Assembly: GCF_003334255.1 (NCBI RefSeq)
Contig: NZ_QOWU01000095.1
Direction: 5' to 3' (one strand)
Origin: Escherichia coli
Lineage (GTDB): Bacteria > Pseudomonadota > Gammaproteobacteria > Enterobacterales > Enterobacteriaceae
Length of the DNA stretch: 7,641 bases
The translations under genes and the position numbers were made by a program. Positions 1 through 153 of this stretch are shown here, piece by piece (positions within the stretch are counted from its first letter, which is position 1; every line of letters begins with the position of its first letter). Under the pieces are notes generated by a model. That model was given only the letters and a program-made list of their open reading frames with translations. It did no database searches and had not been told where the DNA came from.

Positions 1-153
1 TTACAATCCTCTTTTTTCGGTACATATTTCCAGTCACCAGACCACTACTTCCCCTGAAAGTCCGTAACGCCTTTTTTTTCACGTAGCGATATCGCCATGC
101 CACTGTTTTTGCTTGCCCCGCCGTTTCATGCCCTTCCTGATAATTAACCTCGC

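Follow-up and report, generated by a model that had tools for sequence, protein, structure and literature searches.

The locus under study lies at the left end of the window, a term used here for the whole stretch of 7,641 nucleotides of Escherichia coli DNA that was analyzed. On the minus strand, its neighbors are the genes encoding a Cro/CI-family regulator (which carries the name DicC in a phage record), ydaT, a replisome organizer gene, a DUF977 gene and small ORFs on the one side, and hokD, a DUF968/YdfU gene, rusA and Q on the other. The genes on the plus strand are those of a DicA/cI-like repressor, ydfA, ydfB, ydfC, DicF, and dicB. The genomic context is that of a Qin-like lambdoid prophage. 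Over positions 1..1079, the window shows 100% identity with many E. coli chromosomes and 99.9% identity with two phage records; over its entire length, it is 99.9% identical to E. coli strain G1/2. Identical copies were found in hundreds of E. coli genomes harboring a lambdoid prophage of the Qin/DicA-DicC/DicF type, and the first 200 nt of the window, together with the 200 nt located to the left of it, are the same at the two loci L001 and L009.

RefSeq places at this locus a pseudogene extending across the left edge of the window (Table 1), which is labeled "hypothetical protein; frameshifted; internal stop." The pseudogenes EGX93_RS25820 (NZ_CP033762.1) and H4P46_RS26065 (NZ_CP060083.1) are 100% identical to the present sequence over window positions 1..157 and over the 200 nt leftward, and they have the same strand and the same start as the ORF in the window: no difference was detected, and they are the same feature. 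In two phage records carrying the same allele as the window, one of which is ON470619, the corresponding 85-codon ORF is called as a CDS. The initial annotation, which was confined to positions 1..153, had described this segment as apparently non-coding and had proposed that it might be a transcript 3' region, a regulatory spacer, or the edge of a gene situated for the most part beyond the window. When the contig is extended leftward, the segment is found to be spanned by an annotated CDS or pseudogene, and a codon-by-codon homology links it to an intact prophage gene that is under selection; this leaves little of the first two proposals. The third was right as regards the edge of a gene, but not as regards its extent: the window contains 157 nt of the RefSeq pseudogene (317 nt in total) and 52 codons of the present ORF (85 in total), i.e., about half of the gene. 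The feature is thus an ordinary one and a known pseudogene; what is added here to the existing RefSeq annotation is the location of the frameshift in an A-run and that of the stop at 47..45.

Table 1. Features at the left end of the window (positions are those of the window; negative positions lie to the left of it).
Feature	Position	Strand	Basis or remarks
RefSeq pseudogene	-159..157 (= L001 3841..4157 = L009 1341..1657)	-	RefSeq annotation
5' part (codons 1-52) of the 85-codon ORF; disrupted copy of a 104-119 aa PHROG 660 gene	1..157	-	Open frame and homologs
TAG stop in the ancestral frame	45..47	-	CAG or CTG in intact homologs; alignment
A8 run on the coding strand (T8 on the plus strand)	72..79	-	Lys27-Lys28-Lys29 codons; alignments
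10-bp palindrome GCGATATCGC, containing an EcoRV site	86..95		Occurs once; last base of Trp21 plus Arg22-Tyr23-Arg24
ATGA overlap	154..157	-	ATG 157..155 of the disrupted gene and TGA 156..154 of the upstream ORF; sequence
Upstream ORF, 58 aa, WP_000753060.1, hypothetical protein, PHROG 519	154..330	-	Stop overlaps the start of the disrupted gene
DUF7167 family gene, 60 aa, WP_001224662.1, PHROG 1997	323..505	-	8-nt overlap with the 154..330 ORF

Six-frame translation yielded a minus-strand frame without any stop codon over window positions 2..157 (52 codons). The ORF crosses the left edge of the window by 100 nt and comprises 85 codons in all. Read downward from position 331, the frame gives ...*MSEVNYQEGHETAGQAKTVAWRYRYVKKKALRTFRGSSGLVTGNMYRKKRIV (the asterisk denoting a stop) and then leaves the window at its left edge. 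Only frames of 16 codons or fewer had previously been reported in the interval 1..153; in fact, five of the frames contain open stretches of 24-29 codons there (27-29 codons on the plus strand, 24 and 26 on the minus strand), and the sixth, which amounts to 50 codons on the minus strand, is open throughout. The minus-strand ATG at position 25, which had been seen to run off the edge, is a genuine in-frame codon of this ORF, but an internal one, encoding Met45. The ORF starts at ATG 157..155, which is situated 4 bases outside the interval 1..153.

This ATG is preceded, 6 nt on its 5' side, by a weak Shine-Dalgarno-like GGGG, and it shares an ATGA with the stop codon of the upstream ORF, a junction which is likewise annotated in RefSeq and in the phage records. 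ATGA start/stop overlaps are typical of translational coupling. Segment 1..153 belongs to the 5' part of a minus-strand ORF whose translation appears, judging from the sequence, to be coupled to that of the upstream gene. Since the latter overlaps the DUF7167 gene by 8 nt in its turn, the segment ends a chain of three overlapping minus-strand ORFs. The order consisting of the DUF7167 gene, the 58-aa ORF, and the present gene with its ATGA coupling is kept in L001, L002, L004, L006, L007, L009, L010, and L011.

Intact homologs of the disrupted gene were reached by performing tblastn with the frame-corrected translation, which gave single-piece matches in several phages, with 77-84% identity. 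Two intact homologs having the same position and the same ATGA start encode proteins of 104 aa (WP_001529162.1, L006) and 119 aa (URC08893.1, L004). They are 77-95% identical to the window at the DNA or protein level and have the same core, AWRYRYVKKGVTD...WKYVP.KEDCNDRP.YEIQALF; they differ from it in the A-run, which is A6 rather than A8, and in having a sense codon in place of the TAG. The PHROG 660 profile matches the two intact proteins with E-values of 3.6e-31 and 2.9e-45, whereas in the present 85-aa ORF it matches residues 2-31 only (E 0.006). The frame present in the window is not that of an uninterrupted PHROG 660 member, as the A-run brings about a +2 frameshift, and the ancestral frame contains a TAG. 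Once corrected for the frame, the ancestral product belongs to the PHROG 660/WP_001529162.1 family.

A word-indexed search yielded 328 homologs, 72-171 aa in length, every one of which is annotated as a "hypothetical protein." The core of the family, A16...F63 (residues 16-63), is largely invariant, and the N- and C-terminal extensions vary. The codons of the intact relatives bear the mark of purifying selection (dN/dS ~0.18 between the two intact genes, over 90 codons), and the family as a whole represents a real gene. Some of the relatives (P0070 and P0022) have in addition an Ead/Ea22-like (PF13935) or DUF551 (PF04448) domain at their N- or C-terminal end, and Ea22 is also the annotation given to neighboring genes in related phages. 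A Pfam scan of the intact 119-aa homolog detected no family even at E <= 10; since the core module has no Pfam match, it is not a member of either the Ead/Ea22-like (PF13935) or the DUF551 (PF04448) family. Searches performed with the intact family gave no matches in NCBIfam and only designed-protein noise among the PDB sequences (E >= 0.045). The AlphaFold2 model of the intact family, based on a 23-sequence alignment, has a pTM of 0.24 and, because its pLDDT is 48.9, cannot be used for a fold search. A search of the literature on Qin, dicF, and pseudogene yielded nothing specific to the present ORF.

The two lesions can be located exactly by comparison with the intact genes. The coding-strand run is A8 in the window vs. 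A6 in the intact homologs, which amounts to a +2 frameshift. At this point, the intact genes read GTG AAA AAA GGC GTT ACG GAC TTT CAG G.G AA. CAG/CTG TGG, and the window type reads GTG AAAAAAAA GGC ... AAG TAG TGG. When two of the A's were deleted in silico, the translation became MSEVNYQEGHETAGQAKTVAWRYRYVKKGVTDFQGK*WSGDWKYVPKKEDCNDRPNYEIQALFTAPPVPVTSEELVKAVHFYEQLKRENPPASGNLITDSQIRQ, in which only the stop departs from colinearity with the family. This stop, TAG 47..45, is the "internal stop" mentioned in the RefSeq pseudogene note. The T8 tract, which the initial annotation had placed at exactly the right position, is itself the frameshift lesion, as seen from these alignments.

The alleles that were aligned form a series: L006 and L004 are intact and have A6, L005 and L003 have A6 and TAG, L007 has A7 and TAG, and the window type has A8 and TAG. 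Of 5,426 complete E. coli genomes, 339, including that of CFT073, have exactly the 81-nt A8+TAG haplotype, 424 have exactly the 79-nt A6+TAG haplotype, and 81 have a gene at least 99% identical to the intact L006 gene. The A8 run is very unlikely to be an assembly error, since 339 independent assemblies agree on it. The existence of the A6+TAG and A7+TAG alleles suggests that the nonsense mutation most likely came first and that the growth of the run occurred later; this order was obtained by parsimony from a small number of alleles, in prophages that are mosaic and recombine. In the A6+TAG alleles L005 and L003, there is also an insertion, about 55 bp long and close to the 3' end of the gene, that is absent from the window type and again points to mosaic decay of the locus.

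In our opinion, with a probability of about 0.9, positions 1..157 of the minus strand are the front half of a small accessory prophage gene which has become a pseudogene via the A8 frameshift and the TAG stop. The prophage is a Qin-like (DicA/DicC/DicF) lambdoid one, and the gene would be located in its early-right operon, in which the order would be dicC-like cro, ydaT, replisome organizer, DUF977, small ORFs, hokD, rusA, and Q. The ancestral product would have been a PHROG 660 protein of about 104 aa, the translation of which was presumably coupled to that of the preceding ORF via the ATGA. In a first step, the sense codon that is CAG or CTG in the intact relatives would have changed to TAG at 47..45. 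In a second step, under relaxed constraint, the A6 run (Lys-Lys) would have grown to A7 and then to A8 at 79..72 by replication slippage, shifting the frame by +2. Ribosomes starting at ATG 157 would now synthesize a product in which 26-29 native residues precede a very basic, out-of-frame stretch of about 56 residues, before reaching the stop 100 nt to the left of the window. As the gene is disrupted in the present lineage, a working protein is probably not encoded by the segment any more, and in this limited sense the reader who called it non-coding was right. Since the frame remains open and the coupling to the upstream ORF has been retained, some activity may nevertheless persist in a truncated or chimeric product.

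The segment is best described as a decayed coding sequence and not as a spacer or a terminator, which corrects the previous misreading. It illustrates the familiar process of erosion of accessory genes in cryptic prophages, involving in this case a nonsense mutation and then slippage in a homopolymer. From the practical point of view, starts situated just beyond the interval inspected are hidden by the edges of windows, and a start that is coupled via an ATGA and has a weak Shine-Dalgarno sequence is easily overlooked by eye.

The possibility that the present 85-codon ORF may be a functional gene, in which 26-29 native N-terminal residues have been joined to a new, basic, frameshifted tail, was also considered. 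The ORF is open and has kept its coupled ATGA start, it is identical in the 339 complete genomes, and the allele is annotated as a CDS in the two phage records mentioned above. The identity between the 339 genomes reflects, however, recent common descent of the prophage rather than selection, and RefSeq classes the locus as a pseudogene. Beyond residues 2-31, moreover, the conserved domain is read out of frame, and since the A7 and A6+TAG sister alleles end elsewhere, the frameshifted tail is not conserved. We regard a functional chimera as highly improbable.

Nor does the A8 run have to be a lesion if it serves as a recoding site, at which either programmed -1 frameshifting on A AAA AAG or transcriptional slippage would restore the ancestral frame. 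The sequence A AAA AAG does occur at 77..71 on the minus strand, in phase with the frame starting at ATG 157, and a -1 shift (+2 being compensated by -3) would return exactly to the ancestral frame. A AAA AAG is a -1 slippery heptamer of the dnaX type. The window shares this heptamer, in the correct phase, with the programmed -1 site of dnaX, but differs from it in that there are no stimulatory elements, that the heptamer is not conserved, and that the shifted frame ends after nine codons. No Shine-Dalgarno-like stimulator was found upstream in the sequence, the downstream structure is not significant (z -0.15), and the intact relatives read A6 in a single frame. The ancestral frame to which ribosomes would return meets the TAG after nine codons, so that the shifted product would be only 37 aa long, and no full-length frame exists downstream. 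Runs of 8 A's are also below the usual length for efficient transcriptional slippage. The presence of the heptamer in the window is probably a coincidence, and the idea that the run is used for recoding is almost certainly wrong.

With the run taken as a frameshift in a decayed gene, the two motifs on which the initial annotation had focused can be viewed in a different light. The run at 72..79 is the sole T8/A8 run in the window; in dinucleotide-preserving shuffles, such runs occurred on average 1.45 times, and at least one was present in 126 of the 200 shuffles, which means that the T8 is not unusual. The 10-bp palindrome GCGATATCGC is real, but it had been assigned to 90..99 instead of the position given in Table 1. 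Since the window contains 5 perfect 10-bp palindromes vs. 7.7 +/- 2.9 in the shuffles, the presence of one of them is unsurprising. Residues W21, R22, Y23, and R24 are invariant in 23 members of the family, the DNA of the palindrome is invariant in 6 homologous loci, and the A-run codes for the invariant K27 and K28. The palindrome is a coincidental by-product of the conserved W-R-Y-R codons, and the T8 is one of conserved codons together with the lesion.

These data also bear on whether the segment may be truly non-coding, i.e., either a 3' region with an intrinsic terminator making use of the T8, or a spacer in which the palindrome serves as a protein-binding site. The T8 run and the 10-bp palindrome are indeed both present, and the gene being disrupted, the DNA may be free of coding constraint in the present lineage. 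Both motifs occur, however, at chance frequency and are located within codons that are conserved in the protein family, and the T8 has no G+C-rich hairpin before it. When the RNAs of 4..153 and 40..110 were folded for both strands, the z-scores ranged from -0.15 to +1.46, which means that these RNAs are not more stable than the shuffles; no stable hairpin of the kind expected of an intrinsic terminator adjoins the T8. The terminator scan of L001 3200..4600, which covers the segment and its left extension, yielded no sites vs. 1.2 in the shuffles, and one promoter-like site was found in the same interval vs. 3.4 in the shuffles. The Rfam scan of the whole window gave no match in the segment, the sole match being DicF at 5174..5225. 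No plus-strand transcript ends here, since every left neighbor from hokD to Q is a minus-strand gene. The extension to the left had already largely refuted the non-coding hypothesis, which we take to be extremely unlikely.

Two independent derivatives of exactly the A8+TAG allele, L010 and L011, carry an additional +1 insertion 3' of the TAG, consisting of a T in the former and an A in the latter. The regions L010 601..918 and L011 601..918 are homologous to window positions 1..157 plus the left flank, and in both cases the insertion restores the ancestral frame, giving 105-aa ORFs (P0005 and P0092). On these lines, the A8 run might be the first half of a repair process, in which the TAG is bypassed by the +2 shift and the native sequence of the C-terminal two thirds is regained via a downstream +1. 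If the L010 and L011 insertions are real and have been selected, this would be a case of natural bypass of a nonsense codon by paired frameshifts, and the gene would be of benefit to the prophage or its host. Among the approximately 1,218 complete E. coli genomes having the locus, the L010 insertion was found in none and the L011 insertion in one at most, a single record falling in the band of >=99% identity. Because of this rarity, the insertions were taken to be sporadic events or errors and not evidence of selection; widespread selection for repair was rejected on these grounds, and it is highly improbable that the A8 run is a step toward repair.

Several minor observations were made on other parts of the prophage. 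The DicF antisense sRNA, located at window positions 5174..5225 on the plus strand, is a full-length match with Rfam RF00039 (76.7 bits); its position between ydfC and dicB is the one it has in the Qin prophage of K-12. The DicA/cI-like repressor ORF (window 3368..4006, plus strand) is intact and encodes 212 aa. At the same locus in L001 and L009, RefSeq gives only the C-terminal 113 aa, under the name "LexA family protein," and a phage record gives a 200-aa cI; these differences in length between the records are probably due to differences in the annotation of the start site.

To the left of the window, at a distance of approximately 330-510 nt, an unannotated small ORF is present on the minus strand between the pseudogene and hokD (L001 3491..3670). 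It has a strong AGGAGG Shine-Dalgarno sequence and encodes a hydrophobic protein of about 59 aa, MKNALQFLFVAFWLFVSCMPIIF..., and a gene of similar size is called at the same place in L011.

Lastly, the minus-strand DUF977 family gene (~1013..1442) contains at window positions 1069..1082 a 7-bp tandem duplication, CTTCACT CTTCACT, which is not carried by L001 and L009. No full-length matches with this duplication were found in the 5,426 complete E. coli genomes, in which the best match with full coverage amounted to 95.7% (154/161 bases). The duplication shifts the frame of the last ~20 DUF977 codons, and the ORF in the window therefore stops at 1071 instead of 1013.
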